Shown here: positions 38,200-55,836 of the stretch, piece after piece
Numbering within the stretch: position 1 is the first letter of the stretch
Layout: the number at the start of each line of letters is the position of its first letter
Source of the DNA: an uncultured Ignavibacteriales bacterium
Lineage (GTDB): Bacteria > Bacteroidota > Ignavibacteria > UBA10030 > SZUA-254
Direction: 5' to 3'
NCBI GenBank assembly: GCA_963714795.1
Contig: CAVQPS010000009.1
Coordinates: forward strand, 710,970 to 774,969
Length of the DNA: 64,000 nucleotides
Position numbers and translations under genes: made by a program
The notes under the pieces: model-generated
The model's database searches: none
The model's input: only the letters and a program-made list of their open reading frames with translations
Told to the model about the DNA's origin: nothing

Positions 38200-38213
38200 G
38201 TTATATATTTTCT

Positions 38214-38362: not shown

Positions 38363-41300
38363 ATGCCGAAAAGGTTTTCATTGCGATTTGTCGTTCTCTT
38401 GCTGTCCGTTTTAATATTTAGCGGAATCTGTGTGAGCCAGGATTTTCTGGCGCACCGCGTGCTTATTCTCTTTGAAGGAAGCGACGTTCCGACGAACTAC
38501 GCCCGCGGCGATGCCCGCCAGCTTGCAATGCTGATGGGACATTTTACCGTCGATACTAAATTGCAGGGCGTCGATTCGTACCTTCCGGGCGAAATCAATA
38601 ATTATGACATCACATTCTTCGTCGGCTTTACGAAACGATACGACCCGCCGGAGAAATTCATGCGCGACGTCTACAACTCGACGCAACGGATTGTCTGGAT
38701 GAATACCGGCATGGAACGGTTTTCGAAGCAATTCAATCTTTCGAAACAGTACGGATTTACATTTACGCGGTTCGATACCGTTCTGCAATTCAATGAAGTG
38801 CGGGCAGGCAAAAAGACCTTCACCAAAGGCGAGCCGAATCTGAATATCATCAACATCACGAATACGAAAGCGGTGGAAGTAATTGCGACGGCATATTCCA
38901 CGTCGACACGTCGCGAATCGCCCTACATCATCCGCAACGGAAATTTTATGTATATCGCCGATTCGCCGTTCGCCTCGGCAACGGAAACCGACCGCTATAT
39001 CTTTTTTGCAGACATGCTTCATGACTTGCTTGGTCAACAGCATGAAGAGATTCACCGGGCGCTTCTTCGCATTGAAGATGTTGGCGTTTTTGACAATCCT
39101 GCCAAGCTGCGAGATATTGCCGACATGATGTATTCCAAACATCTTCCGTTCCTTGTCGGTGTGATTCCGTACTTTGTTGATCCGCAAGCCGGACTGCGGC
39201 TCAGCATGTCCGACAAGCCGGAGTTCGTCGATGCACTGAAGTACATGGTTGCGCACGGTGCAACCCTCGTTATGCACGGCATCACGCACCAGTATGAAGG
39301 CGTAACCGCGACCGATTTCGAATTTTGGGACGGCAGTACGAATAAAAAAATCCGCGGCGACTCGAAAGAGTTCGTCGAGAAGAAAATGAAAACGGGATTG
39401 GAGGAATTCTGGAAGAACAATCTCTACCCGCTTGTCTGGGAAACGCCGCATTATACCGCATCGCAACTCGATTATCCGGTGTTTGCGGAATTTTTCTCCA
39501 CCGCAATGGAACAACGACTCGTCATCGAAGATCCGGATTACAGTCAATACTTTCCCTATATAATAGAGAAGGATTTATATGGTCAACGAATCATTCCGGA
39601 AAATTTAGGATACATCCCGCAGGATCCCGATCCAAAAGTCGAAGAAGCGGCCGTTCAGCAATTGCTTGATGGAGCGAAAGCACAGCTTGCCGTGCGTGAC
39701 GGATTTGCATCGGCATTCATTCACTCATTTATCGACATCAAATATATCGAGGAATATGTCGACGGCGTGCTCGATCTCGGTTATACGTTTATGGATGTGA
39801 AGAACGAGCCGCATCAGGTCAGATTGAAAGACCGCATCGTTCTGACCGGAAACCAAATTTTCGATCTCACGCTGGACGATCAATATATGAGGAGAACATG
39901 GCTTGCTCCGAACGGTGAAGTCGATCATAGTGAAATTTCCGAGAACCGGATGAAAGGTGTTATCAAGGACACTATCGATGTTCCGCCCGGAGAGATTTTT
40001 ATGGCGGAACCGTCCGAATATCGCGAGATGGAAGTTTCCTGGCTGGAAAAAATGAAAGAACAAACCGCGGCGTTATGGAATAATATTTTCCAGAACGAAG
40101 AAATTTTCGATGAGGCGCGTGTCGGGATCATTTGGGACTCGCGTGCAAAAGGGAGCGACTGGAACAATCAGGCGAGTTTTGCTTCGGCATTCCGGTCGTT
40201 AAATATCGATATCGATTCGCTGTCGGGAGACAGCATCGGAAGCTTGTCGATGTATAATTTGCTTGTCGTTCCGTACCATACCGTCGAACGGTTATCGAAC
40301 AGCGATTATGATCGTATCGTCGAGTTTGTGGAAAGCGGCGGATGTTTGATTACCGACGGGAAAAACGAGCTTGCAAAAGAAGTCGGGGTGAAATTTGCTT
40401 CATCATCGATCAAGATCGAACGGATGCGTGACCAGATGTATCCGGAAGATGCGCTCGTCCTCCGGTCTCCCGATATCATGTCACGCTTTGAGGTGGATCG
40501 TAACGATGAATCGTTTTGCATCGATGAACGAACGGAAGCTCCGGTTGTCATCGGCAGGAAATACGGCAACGGGAAATTCCTTTTCCTCGGCCTCCGGTTC
40601 GATCCCGTTTCCACCGGTGGATTCACGCGGTTTCCCTATTTGATGGAATATATCCGGAATTATTTTCATCTCCAGCCGATGCTTCGGCGTGAAAATCTGG
40701 AGGTGTATTTTGACGACGGCTATCGCCACAACGTCAGCATCGAAGACCTTGTCAAACGCTGGACGATGGCCGGTGTGCGCGTCGTGCATGTCGTCGGATG
40801 GCATCAATACAAAACGTGGACGTATGATTACGGACGTTTGATCAAGCTGTGTCATGCAAACGGCATCCTGGTGTATGCGTGGCTTGACCCGCCGCAGGTT
40901 TCAGAAAAATTCTGGACAGATCATCCGCAGTGGCAGGAGTTGAATTACAAAGGCGAAGCGATCCGACCATCATGGCGGTATCCCGTTGCGCTGACAAATT
41001 CCGAATGTCTGTCAACCGTCAAGGGTATCTTCAAGGATTTCCTGATGAAGTACGAATGGGACGGCGTGAATATCGCGGAATTATATTTTGAATCGGGCAA
41101 CGGTCCGCAGGATGCAAAACTGTTGACGCCTATGCACCCGTCGGCACGGAATGATTTCAAACGAAAATTCAGCTTTGATCCGGCATTGTTGCTCGATTCG
41201 ACATCGCAATATTATTGGAAGAGCAATCCTGCGGCATGGAAACAATTTGAAGATTACCGCGTCGATTTGCTGACACATCTGCATGAAGAATTCCTGAAGA

Positions 41301-42316
41301 TGACCGATGAAATTCGTGTGGAGCGGCCATACTTTGACGTGGTAATCACGGCAATGGACAATATCGGCAACCCGGAATTGCGCGTCAATCACGGCGTCGA
41401 TGTTCAACGTATTATCGATCTGGAAAAGAAATATAAATTCGTTCTGCAGGTCGAAGATCCCGAATCGGAGTGGTCGAAAGACCCGCGCCGGTATAAAAAA
41501 ATCGGACAGCGGTATCAAACACTGCTCGGTCCGGATGGAAAATTGATGCTCGATATCAATATTCTCGAATTCCGCGACGAGAAAAAACCGACGCAATTCC
41601 CGACCCTCATCCAAACCGGAATCGAAAGTTATCATCTTGTCCGCTCGGCAGCACTCGGCGCCGACAGATTTTCCATTTATTCCGAATCAAGTGTCCGCCC
41701 GCAGGATTTGCGGATGATGAGTTATGCCGCTTCGGCGCGCGCAGAGATCGATCATATTCCCGGCGGCTGGAAAATCAGCGCACCGTTTCCGGTTGTGCTC
41801 GAATTGCCGAAACAATATTCCGCGCTGCGACTTTCAACAGGAGAACAAATAACTTCGGATCAGGGATTATTCTTTCTTCCGGCAGGCGATCACATCCTTC
41901 AGGCGGAACGTCATTCGAATCAAACATTTCCCTCCAATCCTCCGACAACCGGACGATTGCTTTCCATTTCCGGAAAGCTGACAAGCCTGAACAATACGAA
42001 CCGCAGTGTGTCGTTCTCATATTCAAGCGACACGAGATGTTTCGCGTCGTTTAGCCATCGTCCGTTTGCCATTATTGTCGATGGAAAGGAAATTAAATCG
42101 GATCCGATGGAAGGTTATCGCCGGTATAGTGTGGCACTGCCGCAGGGCGAGCATCAGGTAATTGCTATTCTGGAAACGACCGTTTCCTACGGCGTCGATA
42201 TTACGAGCTTCTGGTCGTCGTGGTTTATCGTCGGGCTCGGCGCATTGTGCGGCGCCGCGCTGATGGCATTCTATATTCTTGTCCGCATTTCCCGAACTTC
42301 CGAAATGAATGCCTGA
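38363..42316 (+). CDS. Large (1317-aa) exopolysaccharide-modifying protein: DUF2334/polysaccharide-deacetylase-like N-domain, TIM-barrel glycoside-hydrolase-like region, C-terminal TM anchor (PgaB-like logic)
   Basis: I place the start at ATG 38363 (MPKRFSLRFVVLLLSVLIFSG, a signal peptide) rather than the TTG at 38153. It has the DUF2334-like block LLRIEDVGVFDN..LPFLVGVIPYFVDPQ..LVMHGITHQY and a later block VVHVVGWHQYKTW..GILVYAWLDPPQV..WDGVNIAELYFESG. The last ~30 aa are hydrophobic. Confidence 0.75.
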   Translation: MPKRFSLRFVVLLLSVLIFSGICVSQDFLAHRVLILFEGSDVPTNYARGDARQLAMLMGHFTVDTKLQGVDSYLPGEINNYDITFFVGFTKRYDPPEKFMRDVYNSTQRIVWMNTGMERFSKQFNLSKQYGFTFTRFDTVLQFNEVRAGKKTFTKGEPNLNIINITNTKAVEVIATAYSTSTRRESPYIIRNGNFMYIADSPFASATETDRYIFFADMLHDLLGQQHEEIHRALLRIEDVGVFDNPAKLRDIADMMYSKHLPFLVGVIPYFVDPQAGLRLSMSDKPEFVDALKYMVAHGATLVMHGITHQYEGVTATDFEFWDGSTNKKIRGDSKEFVEKKMKTGLEEFWKNNLYPLVWETPHYTASQLDYPVFAEFFSTAMEQRLVIEDPDYSQYFPYIIEKDLYGQRIIPENLGYIPQDPDPKVEEAAVQQLLDGAKAQLAVRDGFASAFIHSFIDIKYIEEYVDGVLDLGYTFMDVKNEPHQVRLKDRIVLTGNQIFDLTLDDQYMRRTWLAPNGEVDHSEISENRMKGVIKDTIDVPPGEIFMAEPSEYREMEVSWLEKMKEQTAALWNNIFQNEEIFDEARVGIIWDSRAKGSDWNNQASFASAFRSLNIDIDSLSGDSIGSLSMYNLLVVPYHTVERLSNSDYDRIVEFVESGGCLITDGKNELAKEVGVKFASSSIKIERMRDQMYPEDALVLRSPDIMSRFEVDRNDESFCIDERTEAPVVIGRKYGNGKFLFLGLRFDPVSTGGFTRFPYLMEYIRNYFHLQPMLRRENLEVYFDDGYRHNVSIEDLVKRWTMAGVRVVHVVGWHQYKTWTYDYGRLIKLCHANGILVYAWLDPPQVSEKFWTDHPQWQELNYKGEAIRPSWRYPVALTNSECLSTVKGIFKDFLMKYEWDGVNIAELYFESGNGPQDAKLLTPMHPSARNDFKRKFSFDPALLLDSTSQYYWKSNPAAWKQFEDYRVDLLTHLHEEFLKMTDEIRVERPYFDVVITAMDNIGNPELRVNHGVDVQRIIDLEKKYKFVLQVEDPESEWSKDPRRYKKIGQRYQTLLGPDGKLMLDINILEFRDEKKPTQFPTLIQTGIESYHLVRSAALGADRFSIYSESSVRPQDLRMMSYAASARAEIDHIPGGWKISAPFPVVLELPKQYSALRLSTGEQITSDQGLFFLPAGDHILQAERHSNQTFPSNPPTTGRLLSISGKLTSLNNTNRSVSFSYSSDTRCFASFSHRPFAIIVDGKEIKSDPMEGYRRYSVALPQGEHQVIAILETTVSYGVDITSFWSSWFIVGLGALCGAALMAFYILVRISRTSEMNA

Positions 42317-43608
42317 TGCCCGGACAGTCGTTTCTTGAACTCGACCTCAGTATCGTTTTTCTTCTTTCCGTCATTCTAATCTGGTTCATGATCTTCTACC
42401 AGCTTGTGCTGACGCTGGCGGGATTTTTTCATTACCGGAGTTCTATCAAAGAACGTCGTCGTATCGATAAGCAGACATTCGATTATCCGCGTGTGTCGAT
42501 TCTGATTCCCGCACATAATGAAGAAAAAGTGATTGCGTACACCGTTGAAGCGATGATGAACCTCGAATATCCGAAAGACAAGCTGGATATTCTCGTTATC
42601 AATGACGGCTCGAACGACGGCACCGCGTCGATTGTGCAGAAATATGTCGATCAAGATTCACGTGTGCGGCTGTACAACGTCCCGAAAGGTGAGGGAGGCA
42701 AAGGAAAATCCCGCGCATTGAATTTGGGGCTGAAGCAAACCGACGCGGAGTTCATTGCAATTTATGATGCCGATAACACTCCCGATCCGAAAGCATTACG
42801 ATATTTGATGGCGCAAATTATTTCCGATGACAAACTCGGTGCGGTGCTTGGAAAATTCCGTACGGTAAATAAAAACCGCAATATTCTGACGCGATTCATC
42901 AATATCGAAACGCTCAGCTTTCAATCGATGCTGCAGGCGGGGCGGTGGAAGCTGTTCAAAGTATCGACATTGCCCGGCACCAATTTTGTCATCCGCCGGA
43001 ATTTGCTCGACAAACTCAACGGTTGGGATGAAGATGCGATCACCGAAGATTCCGAGTTGAGCATCCGCATTTACAAAGAAGGATTGCGCATCAAGTGCAT
43101 TCCGTATTCGATCACGTACGAGCAGGAGCCGGAATCGTGGAGGGTGTGGATCAAACAGCGGACGCGATGGGTGCGCGGCAATAATTATGTCGGCACGAAA
43201 TTTTTGAAAGAGATTCCGGCATTCAAGAATAAATTTCTCGCGTTCGAATTACTCTATTTATTGTCGCTGTATTACGTATTCCTTGTTGCTATCGTCAGTT
43301 CCGACGTCCTGTTTGTGCTGGGATTATTCAATGTTGTCACGATCAGCCTGCCTGGTCCGTACACCGCGGTCTGGATCGTCGGTATCGGATTATTTTTGCT
43401 GGAAATTCTTCTCGCGCTTTCGTACGACCGCGAAGACAGTTTTTCAAACATTCTCATTACGTTCCTGATGTATTTTACCTACTGCCAGCTCTGGATTTAT
43501 GTGGTGGGGAGGGCGCTCTATCTCGACTTCATCAAGAAAGAAAAGCGGACATGGGTGAAGACCGTGCGGTTCGATGTGAAACCGGCGGCAACGGAGACGA
43601 AGCATTAA
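42316..43608 (+). CDS. Family-2 processive glycosyltransferase (PgaC/IcaA/NodC-like)
   Basis: I place the start at ATG 42316, which overlaps the upstream TGA (TGATG). It has ILIPAHNEE, INDGSNDGT, IYDADNTP, TEDSELS and QRTRWVRG (QxxRW), with TM helices at both ends. Confidence 0.9.
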   Translation: MPGQSFLELDLSIVFLLSVILIWFMIFYQLVLTLAGFFHYRSSIKERRRIDKQTFDYPRVSILIPAHNEEKVIAYTVEAMMNLEYPKDKLDILVINDGSNDGTASIVQKYVDQDSRVRLYNVPKGEGGKGKSRALNLGLKQTDAEFIAIYDADNTPDPKALRYLMAQIISDDKLGAVLGKFRTVNKNRNILTRFINIETLSFQSMLQAGRWKLFKVSTLPGTNFVIRRNLLDKLNGWDEDAITEDSELSIRIYKEGLRIKCIPYSITYEQEPESWRVWIKQRTRWVRGNNYVGTKFLKEIPAFKNKFLAFELLYLLSLYYVFLVAIVSSDVLFVLGLFNVVTISLPGPYTAVWIVGIGLFLLEILLALSYDREDSFSNILITFLMYFTYCQLWIYVVGRALYLDFIKKEKRTWVKTVRFDVKPAATETKH

Positions 43609-43708
43609 AAATAAATGGGGACTGGGAGGAAGTTCAACTTCTCAACGAATTGAGTTATCAACCGACCAGACATTGTTCAATCAGCAGTAGAACTGCTTCC
43701 CAGTAGAT

Positions 43709-43741
43709 AAAAAAACCCGGCCATTTCTAGCCGGGGTTTTT
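43709..43741. terminator. Bidirectional terminator element, copy 1 (A-run CCCGGC-CATTTCTA-GCCGGG T-run)
   Basis: A hairpin flanked by A7 and T5, lying between the convergent GT2 gene and the lipase pseudogene. Near-identical copies occur at 50912-50943 and 54113-54144. Confidence 0.75.
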
Positions 43742-43866
43742 GCCCTTCCACTACAGAAACTTATTCTACTTTACCATTACCTTAAATTCATAGGAGGGTG
43801 ACTTATGCTTCACCCTCCCATATGCCCTCCACAATCTAATCCACACGGAGAAGAGGGCACACAACC

Positions 43867-46800
43867 CTACTTCGTAAGAACCATCTTCCGTACCTGAGTA
43901 AATGTCTTATTCGGATTTGCAACACTCGTTGCTTCAATGCGGTAGAAATAAATTCCTGATGCGACACTGCTTGCGTTCCACTGAGCAGGATTTGATAACC
44001 AGCACTCACGATACCATCGGTAAGTATCGTACGACAACTTGTCCGAGCACATTGTAAACTTTCAACGTGACTCTACTATCTGTCGGTAATGCATACCTTA
44101 GCGTTGTCGTGGGATTGAATGGGTTGGGATAGTTTTGTTCCAACGCAAATTCCTTTGGTAACTCATTTTGCACCCCATTCGCGCTAGGTGGCGATGGTGG
44201 TGTCTCACTTGTAGGTACAATCCTTATGCGACCTGTGTTTGAGTTCTTTGCCAAAGAGGTACTGCTTCCTGTGGGATATGCCGACAATATCAACTTTCCA
44301 CTTCTGTTTGTTTTCACCCAATATCCCTTACCTGGCCAGATTGTATCAGAGGTCGCGTAGCCATCCTTATATCCAAAGAACTTTGAGATTGTAGTTATAG
44401 AATCTGATGAAATGTAGATCGGTGACGCAGGGATGGGGACAGATAATGCGCCAATCATATTCCAACCTTCACCAACTACAATCGTATCAACGTAGAATGG
44501 AATTCCGGATATTCCAACTGTTTCAGGTGACGAGAATTTTAGCCAATATCCAACACCATTTAACAGAGAATCTTCTATTACGTAATTAACTTGATACCCA
44601 AAAGCTTCAGATGTTGCATTGGGAAAGAGCGAGACTTTTGAATTGTTTGCTGGGAAGGCAGGGAGAGAAACTAGGTTCCACCTTGATAGCACTATTGAAT
44701 AATTAGAAAAAGCGGAATATGTTGTTGGAGTGATAACCGTATCGACAATTGAATCCCCATTAAGATCAACATAAAGCGGCAATGATGGAGTGATCGTTCG
44801 TAATGAGCAAGTCATAACTGTTGCCGGTCCAAAGACAACACTGTCATATTCAACACTCCTCAGCCCATAACCACCAGAGATTTCATCAAGCCGAAAATCG
44901 AATGAAGCGGAGGTGTCTTGTGAGATTATTTTAAAATTATATACTCCGCCTACTGGAAGTAAAATTGTCTTCTCCGAATTGGGATCTGATAAGTCACCCG
45001 GAATGTAATTGCTACCTTGTATTTGAGCTTCCCAAGTCGAATCTGAAGTTGGCCCTGTGTGCCTACCCAATGAATCATACGCGTGTAAAATCACGGGACA
45101 TGATGCTGTGGCTTGGTATATAGAAGTTCCATAGCTAATCGAAGATAGAATACTGGCATCTTTAATATTTGGATCGGTGAACGTCGTAACAGGCGGATCC
45201 TGCAAGAGTCCTGAGATAATTTTTTTGACAGGTTCACTTGATGGTAAATCTTGATGTTGAATGTCCTTGATATAATAATCAGCTGTCGTTCTAGCACTAC
45301 TGATCGTCTCAGCGCTTCTCAAAGGAACAGTTCCATCTCCAAATAGATTATATTTAGCCTTTCGTTTGCCTTTTTTGTCTCTATCGATAATGACAGAGCC
45401 GATAGTCTGAGTATTGAATCCTACAATATTGTAAATCATTGTATTGCCAAATAAACTATTTGGCATATCCTGGATACTAGGCTGAAAGGTTGTTTCGCTG
45501 TTATTCAGTAGCCCCGCATTAAATTCAAAACCATTACTCGTTGAACAGGTATCAATATAGTTCATTGTTTCTTGATAGTTATATGGGAATAACGTCCCGT
45601 TCTGTTTACTGTATAACACATTTTTATATAAAGGATCGGTCAGTCCAAAATATCGTGCGAATGGTAGCAACTGATACGAAGTAGCATAATTTCGTGAAAT
45701 CGTTTTAACTTCAGGTGGATTTAATGGAATATTCAGAATATCCTAATAATGGAATGGGTAAAGATATATTCATGGCATAGCCGGTTAACAAAACGTTCAG
45801 CATTTTAGGAGCTCCCAGATGAGGAAGTCGCCACGAAAATCAATTTATTTACGTTTAGCATTTCCATGAGTTTCGATATATTGTTTTGCAATCAGGCCAC
45901 CCATACTATCGGGCAATAAGATTGACCTGATTAGCGCCGGTCCAACTTTTCACGCTGTCAATGAATACGTTAAGCGATTCCGCTATAAAGGAATTATTCA
46001 TTCGCCAATCGTATGTGAATATAAACAGATTTTCTCCCTCATTATGATTGTTATCAAAATTGTCTAATACGTAGGGACTGGGGCCATCAATTAAGGTATC
46101 AACCAACCCCTTAATATATGAAAGTGGTTGTGACAGCCATCCCCCTAAATTCAGTTCAGCTCCAATCGAAGACCAATGATTGGCCACGAGGAGGTGCTAC
46201 TTGAATATGTATAGCTTGTATTCGGAGGGATATTAATTCCATCTTCGTCTAATGCTAAATGTGACAAGTTAGATAAGTCCCCAGCCCATATTTTGTCAGG
46301 ATGTACATAGTTGAGATCATAAAGGGGAGATCCCATAATGCCTGGGACGATGCATAACTGGAGTTTTAACAGGATCCCACCCATTCTCATGGTACAATGC
46401 TTGCACGTCCGAATTACTCAATGCGCGGTTGTATATGCGAATGTCGTCCATTGCACCACTGAAATATTGGGGATCCGATGGATTACTGTTTAATGATCCT
46501 ATTTTTAAAGGGATGCTTTCAACTTGAATATTCCCTTCCCCGGAAATATTATAGTCCTTATAGACGTTTACGCCATCAACAAATAAATCTGCTAATTGTG
46601 CTATTTTGTCCACGCGAAGTACAAAGTGATGCCAATTTCCATCTTCAGTATTTAGGCTTTGATTATACCATACATCACAACTATTCAAGCCTCCCAATCC
46701 GTCATTGTATTCCGCACGCACGCCATTGTCACGATCCTGAAGCAAAAATCCCTTTGGTACAGCTGGATCCTCCTGTCGCAATAAGTGAGCCGTGTTCATC

Positions 46801-47272
46801 AGAGGTATTTTTTTTAATTGCCCATACGGAGACTGTGAAACTCGCGGAAAAATCAAGTGAGGTTGAAGGGACAACGCTTATATCGTTACTTACTCCATCA
46901 AATGAATAGCTTCTATTAGGGATTCCAAATCTGTCTGTGGTCAAAGTAGCGCCATTAAGCAGATCCATTATTTCCATTTCCACTAGAATCATTGGCATTT
47001 CCATTGAACGGATAGTAGGCAACAAGCCCATTAGATAAATCAGGAGGAATATTAAACTCCCAAGGTTCACGGGCTTTGTTGGAGATGCGGACTTCGTCAA
47101 TTTTACCCACAAATCCATTTGCCGTATTATTTTCTTGGCCAATCCATACTGGAGCCGTAGAGATTTTTATTGAATCAGGAATATATGCTTGAGCTCTAGC
47201 AAAATTGTTGCCGAGCCACGATAATACGAGAATGCTTAATAAATAAAATAGCTTATGCATGAATGTCTCCAT
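43867..47272 (-). pseudogene. Disrupted gene for a secreted LamG-LamG-alpha/beta-hydrolase (LCAT/PGAP1-like lipase) protein with T9SS C-terminal sorting domain
   Basis: Fragments lie in different frames: signal peptide + LamG (46955..47272), LamG parts (46729..47142, 46317..46874), lipase blocks PGIMGSPLY, FTYDWR, DSMGGLIAKQY and PHLGAPKML (45700-46390), a beta-rich region (44006..45670), and a T9SS CTD ([25 protein letters not shown] / GIYFYRIEA..KMVLTK, 43867..44100). I count at least 9 frame breaks. Confidence 0.75.
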
Positions 47273-47362
47273 TTAGGTTGAGTGAAATAACTCGCGTAAA
47301 TTCTAGTTGGGTCAAAAACTCACTTAACATTAATTGCATATTTGGAGATCTGCGGAAAAAAT

Positions 47363-47395
47363 CAAAAAAAATCCCACCCCTTTTTAGGGGAGGGA
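47363..47395 (-). terminator. Terminator-like hairpin between anti-sigma A and the lipase pseudogene
   Basis: TCCCACCCCT-TTTT-AGGGGAGGGA with an A8 run on the plus strand, which is a T-run after the hairpin on the minus strand. Confidence 0.6.
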
Positions 47396-47436
47396 CCGAT
47401 TATCGTATTCTGTAAAAGTAACTTTTGAAAGCTCGG

Positions 47437-48881
47437 TTATTTCATCGAGATTGGGTTTTCGTTCTTAATCTGGACATTTTCCTTCGACCATTCCTTTCCG
47501 TTCCAATACCGCACTCCGTTCTTAAGATTATCAAGATAACTTTGGTCAAACGTTCCGCGAAGTTTTCCTTCGGCTATGAGTCTTTGTCGGAACCGAAGAG
47601 TAGCGCTTGAGTATTTTATGTCGAGAACATTTAGGTTTTCAGAGAGAACATACTCGAAAATCGGGTGGCCTCCGGTGTGAGTAAGGCTGTCGAAATAGGA
47701 GCCGGTAATAGAAACTGTAAGTGCCGGTTTTCCATTATATGTTGTTTGTTGAACCGATTCGATGCGTCCATTGGACTTTCAACAAATAATTCATATCGGA
47801 AAGTGGAAACCGGACATAGGAGAGTTCAGCCGGAGATGGGGGCAAATCAAACCCGGGAGTACAGTTCGATTCTGACCGACCGATAATCTTCTCGGGATCG
47901 ATCAGAGCAAGAACCGGAAAACTCAACGAATCCATTTCGCCAAGATCGTTTTGACCGAATACAAAAAGTTTTTTCTTGCCATCTGTCAATTGAAGGAGGA
48001 TATTCTTAACATCTCCGTAATGAGCGTACGATCCAAGAATATTTGTTTGGTTATCCAACCGAAAAATAACATTTGGAGACCGACCATTATTTGTTCCAAC
48101 AATAATTTCCGGCAACTAGTTGGCTGCATATTTATTGCATTGTATGTTCCCTACTCCAAAATTGTCATCGTATTTTTTTCCTCGAAACTCTATTTGTTGT
48201 TGAAATACTTTCTGGTAAAGCAATTTTTTGTCGTACGTGAAAATAGACAAAGGTGGAGCTATAAAAGAATGATCCCCAAATGGAAGGCAGGATAATACCT
48301 CGTTTTTTCCATCCTCATTGAGGTCAAATAGAACTACTTGCTCGTAATCTTTTCTCAGATTATCTTCATGAAGTCCATTCAATGCTTTTGAAGGAAGATT
48401 CCAAAGCATATCATGTTCACGATTATAGATTTCTAACATGCCTTGTTCTGGATTTAAATGAACATACGCAGGGTTTACGTCCTTTTGCAATTCCTTTGTT
48501 CCAAACATAAATATCATTGCCAACGTTGCAATTCCCGCAAGGCTTCCAACGCCGGTTACCACGGGATGGTCGACGAATGAAATATGAAAGTCTACCTATC
48601 GCTGTGGCTCGGTCGATACGGTATCGGCGGTGTATATGGTTCGTAGTACGGCTCAATGTTTTGCCGTGAACGAACGAGCCGCGTGCTTACCGGGCGTTCT
48701 GTATGCTTGGTATTTTTTAAATGCATCGTCGGCGCGTTCAGTAAAAGGCTTGTATTTGGTCAGCGAGTGCCCGGCATCCGTGGCACTCAGCAAAGTGCCG
48801 TTCAATTTCATCTCTTCGCTCTTCGACGAGCTCGGAACCGAGAACGTATAATTCTATGATATGTTCATCAATATGCTGCAT
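47437..48881 (-). pseudogene. Disrupted zf-HC2 anti-sigma-like membrane protein A (ZnF - TM - FG-GAP-like extracytoplasmic domain)
   Basis: My translation from ATG 48881 reads MQHIDEHIIELYVLGSELVEERRDEIERHFAECHGCRAL.. (Hx3Cx2C). It continues in other frames through the TM segment VVTGVGSLAGIATLAMIFMF and FDLNEDGKNEV / IIVGTNNGRSP repeats. It has an in-frame TAG at 48116-48118 and at least 4 frameshifts. It is paralogous to 54412-55836. Confidence 0.7.
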
Positions 48882-48932
48882 GTTTACCTCATGGAAAACT
48901 AATTACATTTTTTATTATTGGCGGAAAATTCG

Positions 48933-49385
48933 TTAACCCTCTCCCCTGTCCCGACTTCGTCGTGACATCCCCTCTCCCAAATTTGGGAGAGGGGAACGAG
49001 GGGAGAGGGTCAATATCTTTTCCAGAACTTTCTCAACATCCTCAAGAACTTCTTCATTTTTTATTCTCAACACTTTATATCCGCCGGCCATTAATTCTTC
49101 ATACCGCACACCATCATACTGTTTCTGTTCATTCAACTCATGAATACCGCCTTCAAGCTCAATCACAAGTTTTAAACCGGCACAGTAAAAATCTGCCACA
49201 TACCTGCCAATATGGTGTTGGCGTTTAAACTTCAAACCGTCGAGCGAGTGGCGCCGAAGCTTCTGCCAGAGAATTTCTTCTGCAGGAGTCGAGCGCTTCC
49301 TGAGTTGCCGCGCAACCTCGATGATATAGTGTGGATATTGTTTCATGGTTTTTACCCTCTCTTTATCCCTATCTTTGCGGGACAT
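48933..49385 (-). CDS. DUF559 (Vsr-like endonuclease fold) protein
   Basis: It has ..RKRSTPAEEILWQKLR..LKFKRQHHIGRYVADFYC..LVIELEGGIH..RYEELMAGGYKVLRIKNEEV... It is intact. The start may be ATG 49346. Its C-terminal tail is encoded by the flanking palindrome. Confidence 0.85.
   Translation of the reverse strand: MSRKDRDKERVKTMKQYPHYIIEVARQLRKRSTPAEEILWQKLRRHSLDGLKFKRQHHIGRYVADFYCAGLKLVIELEGGIHELNEQKQYDGVRYEELMAGGYKVLRIKNEEVLEDVEKVLEKILTLSPRSPLPNLGEGMSRRSRDRGEG
48936..49010. repeat. Nested palindrome at the 3' flank of the DUF559 gene
   Basis: The outer arms are ACCCTCTCCCCT (48936-48947) and AGGGGAGAGGGT (48999-49010). Inside is a perfect 28-bp palindrome, TCCCCTCTCCCAAATTTGGGAGAGGGGA (48968-48995). 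Partial direct copies (GACATCCCTCTCCCAAATT, AGGGTGAGGGTCAA) lie at 49381-49446. Confidence 0.8.
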
Positions 49386-49452
49386 CCCTCTCCCAAATTA
49401 GTCGACGAGTCGAGTCGTCGAGAGAGGATCATAGGGTGAGGGTCAACAAGGG

Positions 49453-50479
49453 TCATAATTCTTTCAATTTCTTCACCGCTTTCTTCTGGACAAGCTTCAT
49501 TAAGTATTCAATTTTATTTCTATGTATTTTCGAATATTCTTCTTTCGTCAATCGCGGAAGACGTTGCTGTAAACTCTCAAAAAGAGAACTATCGTGTCCA
49601 TCTTTTCCGATGAACTTATTACACAGCACTTCTTGAATGGAACAGAAGTACAATCCAAATATTTCCTCTGTTACTTTTTCATTTTCAACATATTTTTGTA
49701 CGGTTTGTCGTCGAACATCGTTACAAGCTTGCCGAAGGATAGCTGTAACATCTTCGGAAACAAGTGCTGCATCGATCGTTTCCGATTTCAGGTTGTGCCA
49801 GTTCTTTTTTCTCATAGACGGTCCGAAAGAGGATACCGACACCGACAAACGGCAGAATCCGGCATCGTTCGATTTGCTCCCGGAGTAAAAGCGAAAGCTT
49901 TGCCAAAAGATCGGGGATAAGCTCATCACCTCGCGCTATGTGCAGGAAACAGTGTTCAAGTTCCTCACGTTCGAACGGAGGTAAATGGACCAAGGTATCA
50001 CAGAGACTCGGAACAATGCACGGTTCACCGAATCGTTCAATTTCCTCAAAATTTTTCAGAGAGTGAATTGCCAGCTTAATGTTCCGGAGAATTTTCGACA
50101 AGGATGGATCTGCCTCGCTGTACAACCGGAAAATGCTCTGGTTCACCTTCGAAAAAACAAGCCGCCGCAGGTGAATGAGAATCTCTTCGTCGCGTGCTGT
50201 CGCAATTGAAAGACCGGCGAAGTATGCCTGAAGCTGTCGGTATTTGCCGTCGCCGTCTTCCTGAAAAAGGTCGGCAATGCAATCGTAGGCAAGGTCGGAG
50301 GTGGTGAGATCATAAACAGAAATCAATGACTCAGTTGTTGCTTTGCTCGCGAGGAATGAGGCGGCAAGAGAGTGAGAAACGCCAATGAGGCAATTCAATT
50401 CCTTGCGCGAATGTGATCCGGCAAGAATTGCCGCGATAATGACACGTAATCCCTTTGCTATGCTTGTCTGTTCGATCAT
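49453..50479 (-). pseudogene. Disrupted sigma-70-like (divergent ECF-like?) protein A
   Basis: ORFs 49721..50764 and 49453..49929 overlap in different frames, and the shift maps to the A6 run at 49805-49810. It has region-2-like blocks (DLAYDCIADLFQ; LIHLRRLVFSKVNQSIFRLY). It lies upstream of a zf-HC2 anti-sigma gene and is a paralogue of 55912-56941. The sigma assignment is weak and made by eye. Confidence 0.5.
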
Positions 50480-50911
50480 CCGATTGTACAGCTTCACTGA
50501 CTTTCTAACTATTGATATGCAGAACAGAATTTTCGATTTGTTTTTACGGAATCGGGAGAGAAAGGTATGTTCATGAATGGGAAATAATCCTTTCGTTTCC
50601 TTTATCCCTGCCGTGAAAGATTTAGGAATGTACTGAATAAGCAAGAAATTCTCAAGGCATAATAGCAGTTCTTTAACAGAAATCGGAAAAACAACGCACT
50701 CGATGGTATACAGCAGGGCTTTCGTAAACAGAAGGTTGGCAAGAGATGTCCATAATCTATACAAAGAGGCTATCTTAACACAGAGAGTGAAGTGACTGCC
50801 AACAGCTATTGAGTCGGATTAAAATTTATCTGAATCGAAGGCGATCGAGAGGAATTACCCTCTTATGGGCAAGCTGATTTCAATCTTTGGCATTCAATTC
50901 ATTTGTAAAAT

Positions 50912-50943
50912 AAAAAAACCCGGCCATTTCTGACCGGGGTTCT
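50912..50943. terminator. Bidirectional terminator element, copy 2 (partial family member)
   Basis: AAAAAAACCCGGCCATTTCTGACCGGGGTTCTT, lying 40 nt downstream (minus strand) of the LuxC-like gene. Confidence 0.7.
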
Positions 50944-50982
50944 TGCACTTCCACCTTTCTAAGTATAACCGAGATAAATTAA

Positions 50983-52467
50983 CTACTTGATGAGTCCCAT
51001 TTCGGCTGATTTTATCACTACCTTGGGTTCCATGATTCTCAAGGCATAATCATTACCTTCATGTATAATTGGAACTAAATTTGCAGTCGGGTGATTGAAT
51101 AAAACAGTATGTGTGTTTATTGAAGACGCTAATCTTATATCATCCTCTTTGAGATGAAGTAAGCTGACAGCTAATCTTGGATGAGCGGTTGCATATTTAT
51201 TAACGTGTTCAATTGCTTCAGCTACGGTGCCACAATATCGGACTGCCAAAACATATGCAGATACTTCCACACCAAAAAATTCAGGAAGATGCTCCTGGCT
51301 CTGAATAATTACTGGTTCGGCCTGATGTGGATGGATCCGTCTTCCTCCATAAAAAGTTTTGATATTGTTTGCCTTGATCTTTTCAAAGATATAATTGAGA
51401 TTATCTGGATGTACAAATCCTATTTTTGTATCAGGGTCTAATGGGTCACCAACTTTTAACTGTAATAGATAATCTGCAGCATCTTTAGCCCAATTAGTAC
51501 TTTCAATAGCCATGACAGATTTTGTTGCTGTACACCCAATAGCATATCCTGTTGATTTATATAATAATTCCCCAATATTGTTGTCGAATTGTCCCTGTGT
51601 TATGGAAGCACAATTTCCTGATCCATGTCGCAATACGTTCTTGCCAACAAAATGATCTTTAATTTCGTATTGCATTACTAAAGCAGATTTTAAGCGGTTC
51701 GGATCTGATAAAATAGTAGGCAAATCATTTGGATCTATTGATATTATACCACGTTTTCCTTTTTGCTCATATCTAAGCGTATTATCCACAGTATCATCTG
51801 ATCCAAAAGTCCACACAAGAGAACTAGCATCCACTAATTTAAAATGTTTTCTTCCAGCATCTGCATCCGATGTATTAAAATACACTAGATTGCAGAAATT
51901 CGGATCAAAGCCACCTTCAATCAATGCACGAATTACATCTGTTGCCATAGCATCTTCTTTTGATGCCTTAATTATAAAGGGCACTCCGAAATAGCATAGG
52001 TTCGTTGCAACAAATGCTACTGCTCTAGGATCATTACCTGGTGTCACTGCATAGCAGAATCCTTCCAGGGGAGAAAAGGTTTTATAAATTCCCGAACCAA
52101 TGTGCTCTGAACATATTTGGTAGTCGGTGGTTTTCGGGAATCTTTGGTTGTATAGACTTGGTATACTAGTAAATAAATTAGGGATGTCTTGTGCATAATC
52201 ATTTAGAATAGATACTGGCATTCCCGTCATCTTGACGGTATGCTCTATATCATCTTGTGTGCATTTGAATAGTTTAGCAGTCTTATGCAGTGCATCAATC
52301 CTATTGGCCAGAGTTAATATGGCCGCCTTTTTAGTGTTGCCGATAGCCCGGGAGATTTCCATGTCCTTCGTATTTGCAACTTCATATTCATATTTGTAAA
52401 AGATGGACTTTACTTTAAAAACATCTGTTGCAATATTGCTCCCTCCGATTATCGATGTTAATCTCAT
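50983..52467 (-). CDS. Aldehyde-dehydrogenase-superfamily protein, LuxC-like acyl-CoA/acyl-protein reductase (tentative)
   Basis: 494 aa from ATG 52467. Blocks resembling LuxC family motifs (recalled from memory) are AVTPGNDP..VPFIIKASKED, LVWTFGSDDTV, HGSGNCASITQ (candidate catalytic Cys) and IIHEGNDYALRI. It is intact and starts 2 nt after the upstream stop codon. Confidence 0.65.
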   Translation of the reverse strand: MRLTSIIGGSNIATDVFKVKSIFYKYEYEVANTKDMEISRAIGNTKKAAILTLANRIDALHKTAKLFKCTQDDIEHTVKMTGMPVSILNDYAQDIPNLFTSIPSLYNQRFPKTTDYQICSEHIGSGIYKTFSPLEGFCYAVTPGNDPRAVAFVATNLCYFGVPFIIKASKEDAMATDVIRALIEGGFDPNFCNLVYFNTSDADAGRKHFKLVDASSLVWTFGSDDTVDNTLRYEQKGKRGIISIDPNDLPTILSDPNRLKSALVMQYEIKDHFVGKNVLRHGSGNCASITQGQFDNNIGELLYKSTGYAIGCTATKSVMAIESTNWAKDAADYLLQLKVGDPLDPDTKIGFVHPDNLNYIFEKIKANNIKTFYGGRRIHPHQAEPVIIQSQEHLPEFFGVEVSAYVLAVRYCGTVAEAIEHVNKYATAHPRLAVSLLHLKEDDIRLASSINTHTVLFNHPTANLVPIIHEGNDYALRIMEPKVVIKSAEMGLIK

Positions 52468-52469
52468 AA

Positions 52470-53618
52470 TCAACCCTGCGCACATCCATTAAAGAGAAGT
52501 GCATTTTGCTCTGATGCATTTGCTCTATGAACATTCGTGATTACTGGACTAAAAAGTCCACAAGAGCATTCGCCCTCTTTGAGAGCAAGTGTAGCAACAT
52601 CGCCTGGCCAATATCTCATCCATATTGTACCATCACGAGCAAAAGAAGTATAGATTAAATATCCCTCTTCACCTTTATCTACGGGTTTCCACGAATCTTT
52701 ATCTTTTTTCACGACTTCGATATAATGTGGTCCGTTTAGCAAGTGAAGATTATTATGATGGCACTGAGCTTGGGACGTTAATGCAGGATTAGTGCTGCAT
52801 GCTTGTGGAATTGCCTCTGAAGAGCCAAGACATGTTGCAATGGGAATGTCACCTAAATAATTCCTTGCTAGATCTAGAGCATATGGTACAATTTCAAAAC
52901 CTCCTAAGAAAACAAATTCTATCTGTCTCTGTCCATCCTTATCGGGTACCAAGATGCCTTCATGTTGAGGATTTTCAAGTGACTTTTCAACAAGATCGTG
53001 AAGATTAATGCCTGCTGATTTTGCTTGCTTGTCCATATTTTCTATTGGTTGCTGTACCGTAAAAAGTACGTTTGCTTTATAATCTCGAATATTTTCTAAA
53101 ATCTTATCCGGTCCTTCTTCCGGCCTTCTTAATAGAACATTAACACCTAACGCAACAAGGCTTTCCTGAATCCACTGACCACCTTTATGTGTTAGATTGT
53201 AAGTAGATATCGCCGTATCTCCCGCAGCAATGCCGTGATATTTGATACTTCTTCCAAAAGCTTCAACCTCACGCTCTCTATCATGGACAGTTATAAATGT
53301 TGGAGTATATTTACCCAGTGTTCCTCCACTACCAAATGTGACTACAGGAGAATTTATATCGTTCGGTTTTAGCAACCGAGGATTTGCATTTACGGTTTCT
53401 CTGAATCCTCTCAGTCCGTTTTCCTTGTTAGTGTCTTTGACACAAAGAGGAACTCTGTACCAATCTTCCTGAGTTCTTATGCTATGCGGATGAATGTCTG
53501 CCAATGTCTCAGCATACATGCCGGGCATCTCTGATTTACACCTTCCGAGTTGTTCCTTGAGAAAAGGTAAAATCATGGTGAATAATCTGTCTTGATCGAC
53601 ATTATCCCATCCATGCAT
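52470..53618 (-). CDS. PaaK/CapK/LuxE-like adenylate-forming enzyme lacking the PaaK C-terminal lid domain (LuxE-like acyl-protein synthetase, tentative)
   Basis: 382 aa. By eye it is collinear with the PaaK N-domain (VVTFGSGGTLGKYTPTF, KANVLFTVQQP, MRYWPGDV, ECSCG). It ends ..LLFNGCAQG with a Cys near the C-terminus, as in LuxE. A further ~35 upstream codons are open but have no start codon in frame. Confidence 0.65.
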   Translation of the reverse strand: MHGWDNVDQDRLFTMILPFLKEQLGRCKSEMPGMYAETLADIHPHSIRTQEDWYRVPLCVKDTNKENGLRGFRETVNANPRLLKPNDINSPVVTFGSGGTLGKYTPTFITVHDREREVEAFGRSIKYHGIAAGDTAISTYNLTHKGGQWIQESLVALGVNVLLRRPEEGPDKILENIRDYKANVLFTVQQPIENMDKQAKSAGINLHDLVEKSLENPQHEGILVPDKDGQRQIEFVFLGGFEIVPYALDLARNYLGDIPIATCLGSSEAIPQACSTNPALTSQAQCHHNNLHLLNGPHYIEVVKKDKDSWKPVDKGEEGYLIYTSFARDGTIWMRYWPGDVATLALKEGECSCGLFSPVITNVHRANASEQNALLFNGCAQG

Positions 53619-54021
53619 AGAAAAACATGATGGTTCTATTTCTCGATAACTTTTTATTTCACCATTGATAATCCTTCTTTCTAATTCCAGAAACGGATTT
53701 TCGACACCTGTTAATTCTTTCCAACTTAATGAAGTTTCTCATACTTATTCACATTTATTTCTTAATTAATAATCGGATTTGCTAGTGGCAAGGAATTAAT
53801 GATACGGAATGACTAATTTATTTTTTGTTCAACTTTAGGCTGTCCATTCTCATCGATTTGGCTGCTTTAAAAAACTGCCAAATAACTGCGGAGGAGACAA
53901 AATATTTTTTTAATATTGAAAACCGAAGACATAATAAGAGGAATAATGTCTTACTTATATTAATAGCAGTTATTGCAAACTGCTGAAAAATTGTAAAGAA
54001 ATCTTTGATTGTTTAAAAATT

Positions 54022-54087
54022 AAGTAGACGTGGGTAAAGACCGCGGGGTTCGATGTGAAACCCGCAGCGACAGAAACGAAACGATAA
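54022..54087 (+). pseudogene. Remnant of the last 22 codons of a GT2 glycosyltransferase gene (diverged copy of 43543-43608)
   Basis: It reads K*TWVKTAGFDVKPAATETKR*, against KRTWVKTVRFDVKPAATETKH* in the live gene. By hand count 52 of 66 nt are identical. The same terminator element follows it. Confidence 0.8.
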
Positions 54088-54112
54088 AAATAAAAAGTAT
54101 AAAGTATAAAAT

Positions 54113-54144
54113 AAAAAAAACCCGGCCATTTCTAGCCGGGGTTT
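54113..54144. terminator. Bidirectional terminator element, copy 3
   Basis: AAAAAAAACCCGGCCATTTCTAGCCGGGGTTT, followed by the same second hairpin (GGGAGGGTGA-N8-TCACCCTCCC) as copy 1. Confidence 0.75.
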
Positions 54145-54411
54145 CGCCCTTCCACTACAGAAACATATTTTTTCTTTACTATAATACTAAATTTTGGGAG
54201 GGTGACTTATGCTTCACCCTCCCGCATGCCTCAGCCGTCTAATCCACAACAGAAGCAGACCTTTCTTATATTCCTAGCAGTCATGCTCTAACTGATGAAA
54301 AAATAATTAAAATTTTTTTTATGACAGAAGAATAGGGGGATAATGGATGACGTGAGGTTATCACCTTCCGAGCAAAACAGTAAAGAAAAGCGAAATATAA
54401 GGGATTCGGTA

Positions 54412-55836
54412 TTATGGACCGAAAGGTGTTTGTACCATTGTTACTTGTTTTCTCCATTCCTTCCCATCCCAGTATCGAACTCCATCTTTGAGCGCATCAA
54501 GATAGGATTGATCGAGTTTGCCGGTGAGTTTTCCTTCATTCACAAGGAGATCGTGTAATCGGTCTATGTCGTTATTTGATTTGACACGAAGAATTTTCAT
54601 ACTATCAAGTGAAAAGAAGTAATCAAAACCGAAAAAAGCCCGGAACTGTCCCGAAAACCTGCCGAGAAAGATACCATATTAGAATCTTCTCTTTCCATCC
54701 TAACTACAACATTAGTTTTATGAAGGAGCTTGCTTATATCCGATTCCGGAATTTTGATATAATACAATTCAGCATCGGACGTCGGCATTTGAAATCCCGG
54801 TGTGGCAGAGGATTTCTTTTGTCCGATAATTTTTTCCGGGTCTAAAATTGCAACAGCTCCGAATTCACCCCGGTTCGTGTCGTCTATATCATTTATACCG
54901 CAAGCAATGATTGCTTTCTTTTTTTCCGAGCCCAATACGAACTTCATAAATGAAATCCAATTGTCCAAAGTGCCAATATTCCCCAACAATTTTATTGTTT
55001 TTGTCTATCCTTGCAAGAAAGAATGGCGAACGGCCTATGTTGCTAACAGATACCAAGATTTCTTTTCCACTCTTGCCTCCGAAGTCATCCACAATGATAT
55101 CGCTAGGATTAAAATAGGGTGAATACTGACGGTCAAGGTAATGGACCGGTTCCTCAAAATTTCCTCTCCCATCGAAGGTTTTTATTATAATCAAAAACTC
55201 TGAGTGAAGAAAACAATTTTTCCCCTTTTGAAAGAATCGGAAGAGTGGTAATGAGTTCATTTTTTCCATTCCCATCAAGATCCGCAATTATTGCTCTCTC
55301 ATTACGAGATCCAATTGCACGGTATTTGATTATCTTTCAAATTAATTGATGGAAGCTGCCAGAGTTTCTCATCATGTTTGTTGTATACTTCAATAAAATC
55401 AGTTGTAATATTATCCTTCTCATAGCTGGGATTATCGTCCTTTGTCGATATCCTCGACGTAAAGATTAATGCTGCCGCCAATCCCGCCACCATTGCAAAA
55501 CTTCCAACACCGGTGACAACGGGATGATTTCGGACAAAATATCGAAACTTTTCAATAGGTCTTGTCGGACGGTACGGAATCGGAGGAAGATCGGTACTGA
55601 AATATGGTTCTATCCCGCGTCGGGAACGAAGAATTGCAGTTTCCGCCGAAGGAAGCTCATCCGGCTTTTCCTCTAAATCTTTTTCCAGACCGGCATAAAA
55701 TTCCGTCAGTTCGTCAACAATCGCTTTGCAACCGTAGCATTCTGCCAGATGCTCTTCGATTTGGCGTTCTTTTTGATTCCACTTCCTCAGCGTGCAGAAC
55801 GTAGAGATCTAATGTATGTTCGTCGATATGTGTCAT
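54412..55836 (-). pseudogene. Disrupted zf-HC2 anti-sigma-like membrane protein B (paralogue of A)
   Basis: From ATG 55836 it reads MTHIDEHTLDLYVLHAEEVESK, then shifts at the A5 run (55770-55774) into ..ERQIEEHLAECYGCKAIVDEL..PPIPYRPTRP..VVTGVGSFAMVAGLAAALIF... Further shifts occur near 55300, near 54950 and at the run 54632-54637. It has ADLDGNGKNEL and LDPEKIIGQKKSSATPGF blocks. The C-terminal piece is ORF 54412..54600. Confidence 0.7.

Follow-up and report, generated by a model that had tools for sequence, protein, structure and literature searches.

How did a block of AT-rich, largely decayed genes come to lie behind a glycosyltransferase gene, between two imperfect copies of that gene's 3´ end and with no mobility gene in sight? 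The question is raised by a 64,000-nt stretch of DNA (the window) from an uncultured Ignavibacteriales bacterium (GenBank assembly GCA_963714795.1, contig CAVQPS010000009.1), in which a gap of 13.5 kb separates a family-2 glycosyltransferase gene (GT2) from the helicase-nuclease gene addA. A preliminary description, made from the letters alone, had placed an island at 43552-54255 and had offered att-type insertion at the gene 3´ end, recombination between two diverged versions of the locus and an unequal crossover as ways in which it might have arrived. Recombination between diverged versions, or an unequal crossover, fits the A-type cargo found in one relative (L061), the B-type boundary found in another (L064) and the synonymous divergence of a displaced GT2 remnant. 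We consider it probable that two or three allelic versions of the gap were joined here in tandem by recombination that used homology at one end only, the other end being joined illegitimately.

Gap states in relatives and repeated boundaries

The window was compared with the loci of 47 species-level genomes that carry GT2 together with its neighbor, a DUF2334-domain gene (related loci and contigs are numbered L0xx). By the names of its GT2 homologues the organism belongs with uncultivated Ignavibacteria / Bacteroidota-like MAGs. The DUF2334-GT2 pair was kept in 47/47 loci, and addAB adjoins the pair in the nearest relatives alone. DUF2334-GT2, gap and addA-addB were found in this order in L001, L002, L004 to L009, L013, L061, L062 and the window. 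Five states of the gap could be distinguished. It measures 40 bp in the more distant L004-L009 and L013 (GT2 86-87% identical in amino acids, aa), where GT2 is followed by addA; 1.2 kb in L001 and L002 (GT2 96% aa), where it holds an unrelated 311-aa gene; 1.8 kb in L062, with a pentapeptide-repeat gene; 6.25 kb in L061, a close relative like L001 and L062, with intact genes for a LamG protein with a type IX secretion system (T9SS) signal (778 aa), an anti-sigma-like membrane protein that we call X2 (479 aa), a DUF559 protein (116 aa) and a protein of a family that we call X1 (341 aa); and 13.5 kb in the window (43593-57057). The GC content of the gap is 0.35-0.43 vs 0.47 for the core. The repeats are absent from the empty sites of L004 and L007, and the cargo of L001 and L062 is without the terminator element described below. 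The 311-aa gene of L001 was also considered as a homologue of B1 or A1, the two X1 genes of the window, and was rejected on comparison.

Alignment with the relatives shows which DNA is extra. Against L001, homology runs evenly at ~90% through GT2, ends at 43592 and returns at 57058, leaving 43593-57057 as extra DNA. Against L061, identity is 92.7% over 38263-43741, 72% over 46418-47107 and 81% over 47438-50487, and resumes at 89% over 56963-61079, so that the surplus of the window over this A-type strain is 50488-56962, which the repeats do not bracket. In no comparison with a relative do the repeats coincide with the limits of the extra DNA, and the island first delimited at 43552-54255 is therefore only part of the 13.5-kb gap. 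Composition leads to the same limits: GC is 0.402 for 43.6-57.06 kb vs 0.474 ± 0.024 for the rest of the window, and the tetranucleotide distance is 0.413 vs 0.224 ± 0.031. The AT-richness noted in the preliminary description is thus real, except that the deviant low-GC tract does not stop at the right repeat and extends 2.8 kb beyond it, to ~57.0 kb. The locus has the same position and flanks in the strains, a content that differs and deviates in composition, and signs of exchange, as flexible islands do; judged from these comparisons, the GT2-addA gap is a strain-variable recombination hotspot and a flexible genomic island.

No mobility gene was found, as the preliminary description had stated. 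A six-frame Pfam scan of 43600-57150 (stops replaced by X; E ≤ 0.1) returned no integrase, transposase or recombinase domain, no recombinase or transposase was seen among the 20 largest open reading frames (ORFs) of 0.7-37.5 kb, and the window contains no tRNA. The ORFs neighboring the gap are housekeeping genes. The region had no blastn match in plasmid and phage collections, and a plasmid or phage origin was rejected on this ground; no cargo protein matched the PADLOC defence models.

The imperfect direct repeats said to duplicate the GT2 3´ end and its terminator hold up under alignment. By blastn, 43548-43615 match 54027-54094 at 82.4% over 68 bp (E 9e-13) and 43709-43845 match 54114-54248 at 84.8% over 138 bp (E 6e-34), with the blocks of the left repeat (R_L) and the right repeat (R_R) collinear and identical in orientation. 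The alignment also agrees that ~85 bp (43617-43703) are present on the left only and missing from R_R; because L061 carries this block, it is normal A-type sequence and not an insertion. A third copy of the terminator (term-I), reported at 50912-50960, is placed by us at 50906-50954; it is 91% identical to the left copy and 88% identical to the right one. In the window there are three occurrences of the 25-nt terminator core and two of the 26-nt core of a second hairpin (hairpin-2), where shuffled sequence gives an expectation of 0 for each. The exact runs common to R_L and R_R are ~30 bp in the terminator and ~27 bp in hairpin-2, and neither stands out as a crossover core. Since the terminator element consists of a 6-7 bp GC stem between A and T runs on both strands, it is predicted to be a bidirectional intrinsic terminator. 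Term-I, which lies ~30-40 nt downstream of the stop codon of a LuxC-like gene, has a folding energy of -21 kcal/mol (z -3.5), with U7 coming after it on the minus strand. Hairpin-2 has a 13-bp stem, with 9-bp perfect inverted arms and an 8-nt spacer, and is without a T run.

The two kinds of boundary are found separately in other strains. In L061, GT2, its tail, the 85-bp block and the terminator match the window to 43741, L061 having 38 extra bp and lacking hairpin-2. L064, a 1.9-kb contig (GT2 88% identical in nucleotides), has a live GT2, tail, terminator and hairpin-2 without the 85-bp block, which is the layout of R_R. This contig stops 219 bp past GT2, before any cargo, and close B1 relatives were seen only on contigs of ~1 kb; the empty arrangement sought in relatives, GT2 followed by terminator and anti-sigma gene, was not found complete. 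At their other end the A-type and B-type modules each terminate in a shared motif of 31-40 bp upstream of X1, which in L061 stands directly upstream of A1 and is followed by the addA upstream region.

The GT2 fragment in R_R carries information on its own origin. The last 60-68 nt of the live gene form the first block of R_L, and the orphan 3´ end (54027-54087 vs 43549-43608 in the live gene) lies downstream in the same orientation. Between 54028 and 54087 it differs from the live end at 12/60 nt and retains the stop codon; third codon positions account for nine of these 12 changes (binomial P = 0.004), and eight codons are changed synonymously. Live GT2 tails of the orphan's type are present in L064 and L062. 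Because a dead copy in place would not gather changes biased to third positions, we take this pattern to show descent of the remnant from a functional, diverged allele. Divergence is also unequal along the unit, the repeats being 82-85% identical in nucleotides and the X1/X2 pairs 40-47% identical in amino acids, which rules out a single duplication in place.

A 6.9-kb contig from another assembly (L010), of a ~95% identical strain, has the order of the window: A2, DUF559, A1, term-I, LuxC, LuxE, GT2 remnant and the 3´ end of B2 (A2 and B2 are the X2 genes of the two modules). No substitution separates the two over 50605-53854 (3.25 kb), while divergence is ~3% to the right and 5-20% to the left, a pattern that reads as a recombination mosaic. 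The identical stretch (L010 3462-~600) comprises the terminator copy, LuxC, LuxE and the promoter, and its identity points to a transfer or sweep of the cassette in the very recent past. L010 spans the junction at 50487/50488, and both L010 and L063 (a Logan assembly from another run, 99.95%) span that at 54021/54022; neither the right nor the middle junction is therefore an artefact of assembly. L061 backs the order GT2, tail, 85-bp block, terminator, and 43741-43870 had no independent support among the other assemblies. The lesions in A2 are absent from L010, so some of the frameshifts could have arisen recently or could reflect errors of the consensus where strains vary.

The LuxC/LuxE-like cassette differs from its surroundings in its relatives as well. 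The nearest homologue of the LuxC-like protein outside its own cluster is 46% identical, and the homologues, which the sources call 'acyl-CoA reductase-like', come from scattered phyla; GT2, in contrast, has dozens of relatives at 75-96%. On the basis of these homologue distributions, the cassette is judged foreign to the host lineage, with a donor that has not been sampled.

Proposed stacking of alleles and the rival explanations

The gap is modular, its A-type version and the left boundary of its B-type version are found on their own in other strains, it holds the remnant of a functional allele and it lacks mobility genes. For such a locus we favor the tandem joining of alleles. The first version, of A type (43.6-50.66 kb), would comprise the GT2 tail, 85-bp block, terminator, T9SS/LamG gene, X2, DUF559 and X1, now decayed; the second (50.9-54.02 kb), the LuxC/LuxE-like cassette and the copy of the GT2-downstream terminator that belongs to it; and the third, of B type (54.02-57.06 kb), the last 68 bp of GT2, terminator, hairpin-2, X2 and X1. 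The direct repeats would then be the left-boundary sequence of the versions (GT2 3´ end, terminator, hairpin), and hence not attachment sites. DNA would have been taken up from related strains; at one end, homologous recombination would have occurred in a conserved flank, either DUF2334-GT2 or addAB, and the other end would have been joined illegitimately close to the GT2 stop codon. Cargo already in place, together with an orphaned GT2 3´ end, would have been pushed aside instead of replaced. The one-sided joining, like the number of events, their order and the flank that anchored them, is what we infer from the present arrangement. At the joins (~50657-50905 and 54021/54022) there is no homology beyond A-rich microhomology, which at the latter is an A-rich run closing in AAG (~54015-54026).

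Several observations weigh against this account. A complete B-only locus (GT2, terminator, hairpin-2, B2, B1, addA) was not seen in any strain, nor was a LuxCE-only locus. Sliding identity to L001, L061, L062 and L064 varies between 75% and 97% with no clean switch, and for this reason the crossover, the anchoring flank and the order of events cannot be located. R_L is itself mixed, its left part being of A type and its spacer and hairpin-2 B-like, which calls for either an A-type donor equipped with hairpin-2 or a conversion long ago. Neither addA upstream regions nor GT2 resemble the 249 bp at 50657-50905 significantly, and all of the data are metagenome assemblies.

Direct repeats that take in a gene 3´ end are found around many integrative islands, and the preliminary description had considered this type of insertion. 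An element of 10.4 kb could have targeted the GT2 3´ end or hairpin-2, its recombinase having been lost or acting in trans; the 9-bp arms and 8-nt spacer of hairpin-2 have the geometry of tyrosine-recombinase core sites, and its 64-bp module recurs in an unrelated context in L011. We nevertheless regard site-specific insertion as unlikely. Neither the six-frame scan nor the 20 largest ORFs yielded a recombinase or transposase, the repeats are long (230-300 bp) and 15-18% diverged with a synonymous bias in their coding part, and 762 kb of related DNA held no more copies of hairpin-2. In L061, A-type cargo occupies the same place without hairpin-2 and without a right repeat. Moreover, the DNA to the right of R_R is equally variable and AT-rich, and the repeats do not delimit the DNA missing from relatives, whether 43593-57057 (L001) or 50488-56962 (L061).

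Direct repeats around cargo without a mobility gene would also follow from Campbell-type integration, in which a circle bearing a homologous GT2 tail-terminator-hairpin region enters by a single crossover and that region is duplicated; the ~30-bp and ~27-bp exact runs in terminator and hairpin-2 of both repeats speak for it. By our reasoning, however, whether an A-derived circle entered a B-type recipient or the reverse, a crossover in the terminator predicts the 85-bp block in the repeat that is unattached to the full GT2, or B cargo adjoining GT2, neither of which is seen. An illegitimate join at 54021/54022 would still be required to form the circle, and we think such an integration improbable.

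The assembler could instead have stitched gap versions of co-occurring strains at a shared terminator or hairpin. The contig is metagenome-assembled, diverged A-modules coexist in related samples (L010 vs the window, 5-20%), and many frameshifts lie exactly in the strain-variable parts and are not common to L010. Against this, L010, from a different strain and assembly, has the same order from A2 to the 3´ end of B2, L063 spans 54021/54022 at 99.95% and L061 backs the order of GT2, terminator and A-type cargo. An artefact of this kind is accordingly quite unlikely.

Two paralogous X1-X2 pairs point the same way, with a common boundary sequence ahead of each and a common upstream motif behind it, which might suggest that GT2 3´ end, terminator and X2-X1 were duplicated in place, with subsequent divergence, decay and later insertions. 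This too we judge very unlikely, given gene pairs at 40-47% aa next to non-coding repeats at 85%, a third-position bias in the orphan GT2 tail that is unexpected for a dead copy, and A-type and B-type boundaries that stand apart in L061 and L064.

It would be far-fetched to see the terminator and hairpin-2 modules as recombination sites for a recombinase encoded elsewhere, and the three leftward gene sets, which all close with one element of roughly 50 bp, as integrase-less, integron-like or Xer-like cassettes at the 3´ end of a polysaccharide operon. An integron or an integrase-less array of attC sites (CALIN) was rejected as a classification: there is no integrase, the repeated element is an intrinsic terminator and the cargo of L001 and L062 is without it (no attC model was run).

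Genes and small elements of the region

Feature coordinates are collected in Table 1. All cargo genes between GT2 and addA are oriented leftwards and the LuxC-like and LuxE-like genes are both intact, as the preliminary description had said. The genes to the left of this pair are broken, the small DUF559 ORF apart, and outside the island as first delimited B2 and addA are broken as well. Gene state was judged by tblastn with the intact L061 proteins as guide. What had been taken for a 'large broken gene' is a two-gene X1-X2 module, present as the paralogous pairs A1/A2 and B1/B2 (40-47% aa identity) and found intact in other genomes and other contexts (L014, L065).

Table 1. Features of the GT2-addA gap and its flanks, in window coordinates
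Feature	Position	Strand	Remarks
DUF2334-domain gene	38363-42316	+	Pfam DUF2334 E 2e-48; conserved left flank with GT2
Live GT2, 430 aa	42316-43608	+	Pfam GT2 families; 96% aa to P0001
Left repeat R_L	43548-43855	+	five blocks, from alignments and folding
R_L block 1, GT2 tail	43548-43608	+	
R_L block 2, 85-bp block	43617-43703		15-nt inverted ends
R_L block 3, predicted bidirectional intrinsic terminator	43707-43751		
R_L block 4, spacer			between terminator and hairpin-2 module
R_L block 5, hairpin-2 module	43783-43845		64 bp
T9SS-sorted secreted protein, pseudogene	43870-45742	-	Por_Secre_tail and TIGR04183; frameshift near 44000
LamG-domain pseudogene	45906-47272	-	Laminin_G_3; remains of the 778-aa LamG/T9SS gene intact in L061
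A2, anti-sigma-like membrane protein (X2), pseudogene	47440-48881	-	zf-HC2 N-terminus, FG-GAP-like repeats, DUF2510-like C-terminus
DUF559 ORF (Vsr-like endonuclease fold), intact	48933-49385	-	Pfam DUF559 E 1e-35; between A1 and A2
A1, X1-family gene	49456-50479	-	one frameshift near 49787-49854
X1-upstream motif, copy A	50617-50656	.	80-87% identical to 56954-56993; right end of A-type module
Seam between A-type module and LuxCE cassette, 249 bp	50657-50905	.	identical in L010
LuxC-like gene, 500 aa, intact	50983-52485	-	Pfam Aldedh; acyl-CoA-reductase-like
LuxE-like gene, 382 aa, intact	52470-53618	-	PaaK / DVU_1553 CoA-ligase type, adenylate-forming; NCBIfam NF045666 E 2e-16
LuxE-like upstream (promoter) region	53619-54021	.	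GC 0.29; ends at non-homologous junction with GT2 remnant
Right repeat R_R	54022-54255	+	three blocks
R_R block 1, orphan GT2 3´ end	54027-54087	+	stop codon 54085-54087
R_R block 2, terminator	54107-54155		
R_R block 3, hairpin-2 module	54187-54249		
B2, second anti-sigma-like (X2) pseudogene	54430-55836	-	at least four frame changes; 40-47% aa to A2; DUF2510 and FG-GAP matches
B1, intact X1-family gene, 305 aa (P0121)	56000-56917	-	42-46% aa to A1
X1-upstream motif, copy B	56954-56993	.	L061 homology resumes here; L001 homology resumes at 57058
addA, UvrD-type helicase-nuclease	57145-60203	+	Pfam; tblastn in three frames; first gene of conserved right flank
addB-like PD-(D/E)XK nuclease gene	60237-63029	+	Pfam PDDEXK_1 E 2e-37; syntenic in L001, L004, L007, L061, L062

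Among the A-type genes, the pseudogene at the left end has a weak LCAT/lipase-like region and a C-terminus that matches aa 679-778 of the 778-aa L061 protein in two frames, while aa 195-449 of that protein align with the LamG pseudogene in three frames and the N-terminal 194 aa are gone. A2 is 74% identical (aa) to the intact 479-aa L061 protein and has two frameshifts and an in-frame stop (48113-48115). A1 matches aa 1-231 of the 341-aa L061 protein at 90% and aa 206-341 at 68% in another frame. The DUF559 ORF, 91% identical (aa) to the 116-aa protein of L061, has only ~67 bp in its place in the B copy. It is accompanied by GC-rich CCCTCTCCCC/GGGGAGAGGG palindromes on both sides (48923-48947 and 48999-49023), stands at the same place in L061, is replaced by a short spacer in the B copy and L014, and has a 53% homologue elsewhere in L017; it may be a small selfish insertion. 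For the seam at 50657-50905, an origin in addA-upstream or GT2 sequence was rejected, local alignment scores being barely above those of shuffles.

The X1 family is rare (39 clusters, ~335 aa) and without a Pfam domain; further members lie at 19072-20073 in L014 and 8001-9047 in L065, and wherever downstream DNA is visible a zf-HC2 anti-sigma-like membrane protein (X2) is next. An AlphaFold2 model of B1 (pLDDT 87) had no PDB fold match at E ≤ 0.001 in Foldseek. X1 motifs look sigma-like by eye, with no Pfam or PDB sequence match and no Foldseek PDB match for the AlphaFold2 model. X1 could be a partner of the anti-sigma-like X2 that has so far escaped recognition.

The most AT-rich genes, LuxC and LuxE, are free of frameshifts. 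At E ≤ 0.01 the cassette proteins did not match the Pfam families LuxC (PF05893) and LuxE, giving only Aldedh and a weak AMP-binding match, the latter from the LuxE-like protein; PF05893 is present only in homologues that are 30-32% identical to the LuxC-like protein. By these family matches the cassette is predicted to encode an adenylate-forming ligase and an aldehyde-dehydrogenase-fold reductase, LuxE/LuxC-like in logic.

The hairpin-2 module (~64 nt) was found, besides its two copies in the window, at 85-148 in L011 and 1769-1853 in L064. It consists of a GC-rich hairpin of 9-13 bp with an invariant CUUAUGCU loop and a conserved tail to ...AUCCACAA; one change in an arm in L064 preserves pairing as G-U. 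The module stands behind GT2 in two allele types, and in L011 it is in an unrelated setting downstream of a LuxR-type response regulator. An exact scan of one genome per species for the terminator gave nothing, that of metagenomes for hairpin-2 gave the single contig L011 with its other context, a covariance model of hairpin-2 detected no additional copy in 762 kb from relatives, and Rfam had no credible family for hairpin-2 or the repeat elements. Because exact scans, covariance model and Rfam yielded almost no dispersed copies and no dispersed family, a high-copy repetitive extragenic palindromic (REP) or miniature inverted-repeat transposable element (MITE) family was rejected. At its two ends the 85-bp block carries 15-nt inverted sequences, ACTGGGAGGAAGTTC / GAACTGCTTCCCAGT, and it adopts a long stem on folding (-26.8 kcal/mol, z -2.6); it is at 6345-6465 in L061, with that strain's 38 extra bp, is lacking from B-type alleles, and no other copies were found.

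In the flanks, the DUF2334 gene shows ~90-93% nucleotide identity to L001, L061 and L062. Just upstream of it, a 51-bp direct repeat (90%; 36633-36683 and 38211-38261) surrounds a 1.5-kb block with a methyltransferase gene (36775-37524) and a 189-aa ORF, where relatives have MarC (L004, L007) or small ORFs (L001); the block may mark a further variable spot whose boundary has been duplicated. In addA, four small insertions (1, 1, 2 and 1 nt) relative to L001 and L061 lie within 130 bp (57676-57808), none in a homopolymer; either this core repair gene has truly become a pseudogene or the consensus is wrong locally. A REP-like palindrome, AACCTTGCGAAGGTT ... AACCTTCGCAAGGTT, occupies at least three intergenic sites (7266-7315, 10108-10161 and 36700-36750) and occurs also in L061 and L062. 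A low-GC segment (~0.42) at 10328-12100 holds an EVE-domain ORF (11057-11485) and two ORFs without a Pfam match, next to a uracil-DNA glycosylase-family gene.

Relation to known systems

An annotation should present the region as a flexible island that fills the 13.5 kb from GT2 to addA, with genes that are mostly decayed and a single intact LuxCE-like pair of distant, unsampled origin. As in the LuxC/LuxE pair of lux operons, the gene for an adenylate-forming enzyme overlaps one for an aldehyde-dehydrogenase-fold, reductase-like protein, and the overlap suggests activation of a carboxylate followed by its reduction. Unlike lux operons, the cassette has no luxAB or luxD, and its best named relatives are ligases of the PaaK / DVU_1553 type.

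With att-flanked integrative islands at tRNA genes or gene 3´ ends, the locus shares direct repeats that contain a gene 3´ end and an AT-rich cargo. It differs from them in having no integrase, in repeats that are long and diverged where a short identical core would be expected, and in strain-specific DNA that the repeats do not delimit. The case cautions that direct repeats containing a gene 3´ end are not automatically att sites.

Replacement and additive flexible genomic islands between conserved flanks have been described, for example, in Alteromonas and other aquatic bacteria (PMC4033161). The fixed chromosomal position, strain-specific gene sets, deviant composition and exchange by homologous recombination in the flanks that characterize them have likely counterparts here, as does a cargo of surface or secreted proteins beside a polysaccharide-synthesis operon. 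Whereas replacement islands swap whole cassettes, the versions here appear to have accumulated in tandem, leaving a duplicated boundary.

Homology-facilitated illegitimate recombination (HFIR) has been documented experimentally in Acinetobacter, S. pneumoniae and P. stutzeri, and in E. coli conjugation (PMC3240628). The proposed events would resemble it in the addition of foreign DNA beside a homologous anchor, with microhomology at most and no need for element-encoded functions. HFIR is, however, experimentally defined and mostly involves short inserts, whereas here it would be deduced from the end product and the inserts would be 3.5-7 kb.

A close parallel in arrangement is provided by rhs orphan 3´ ends and type VI secretion system (T6SS) effector-immunity arrays, for which sequential displacement through one-sided homologous recombination and an illegitimate join has been proposed (PMC5361080); for rhs, that paper cites the 'C-terminal displacement' of Jackson et al. 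2009 (PMC2935791). There, as here, the conserved upstream gene retains a working 3´ end, an older 3´ end, beginning with a short conserved piece, lies downstream with the genes that formerly followed it, and no integrase is present. The cargo here differs in being no toxin-immunity pair, the displaced piece is just 68 bp of a glycosyltransferase gene with its terminator, and the displaced cargo is mostly decayed, with no sign of retention for a function such as immunity. Tandem joining of alleles is a known and fairly ordinary route of bacterial gene gain. If the joining proceeded as proposed, the locus would illustrate cleanly, in nature, how an uncultivated Ignavibacteria-like lineage can add genes without mobile-element machinery at a place that is no toxin locus, the displaced gene end and terminator serving as a fossil record of an earlier allele.

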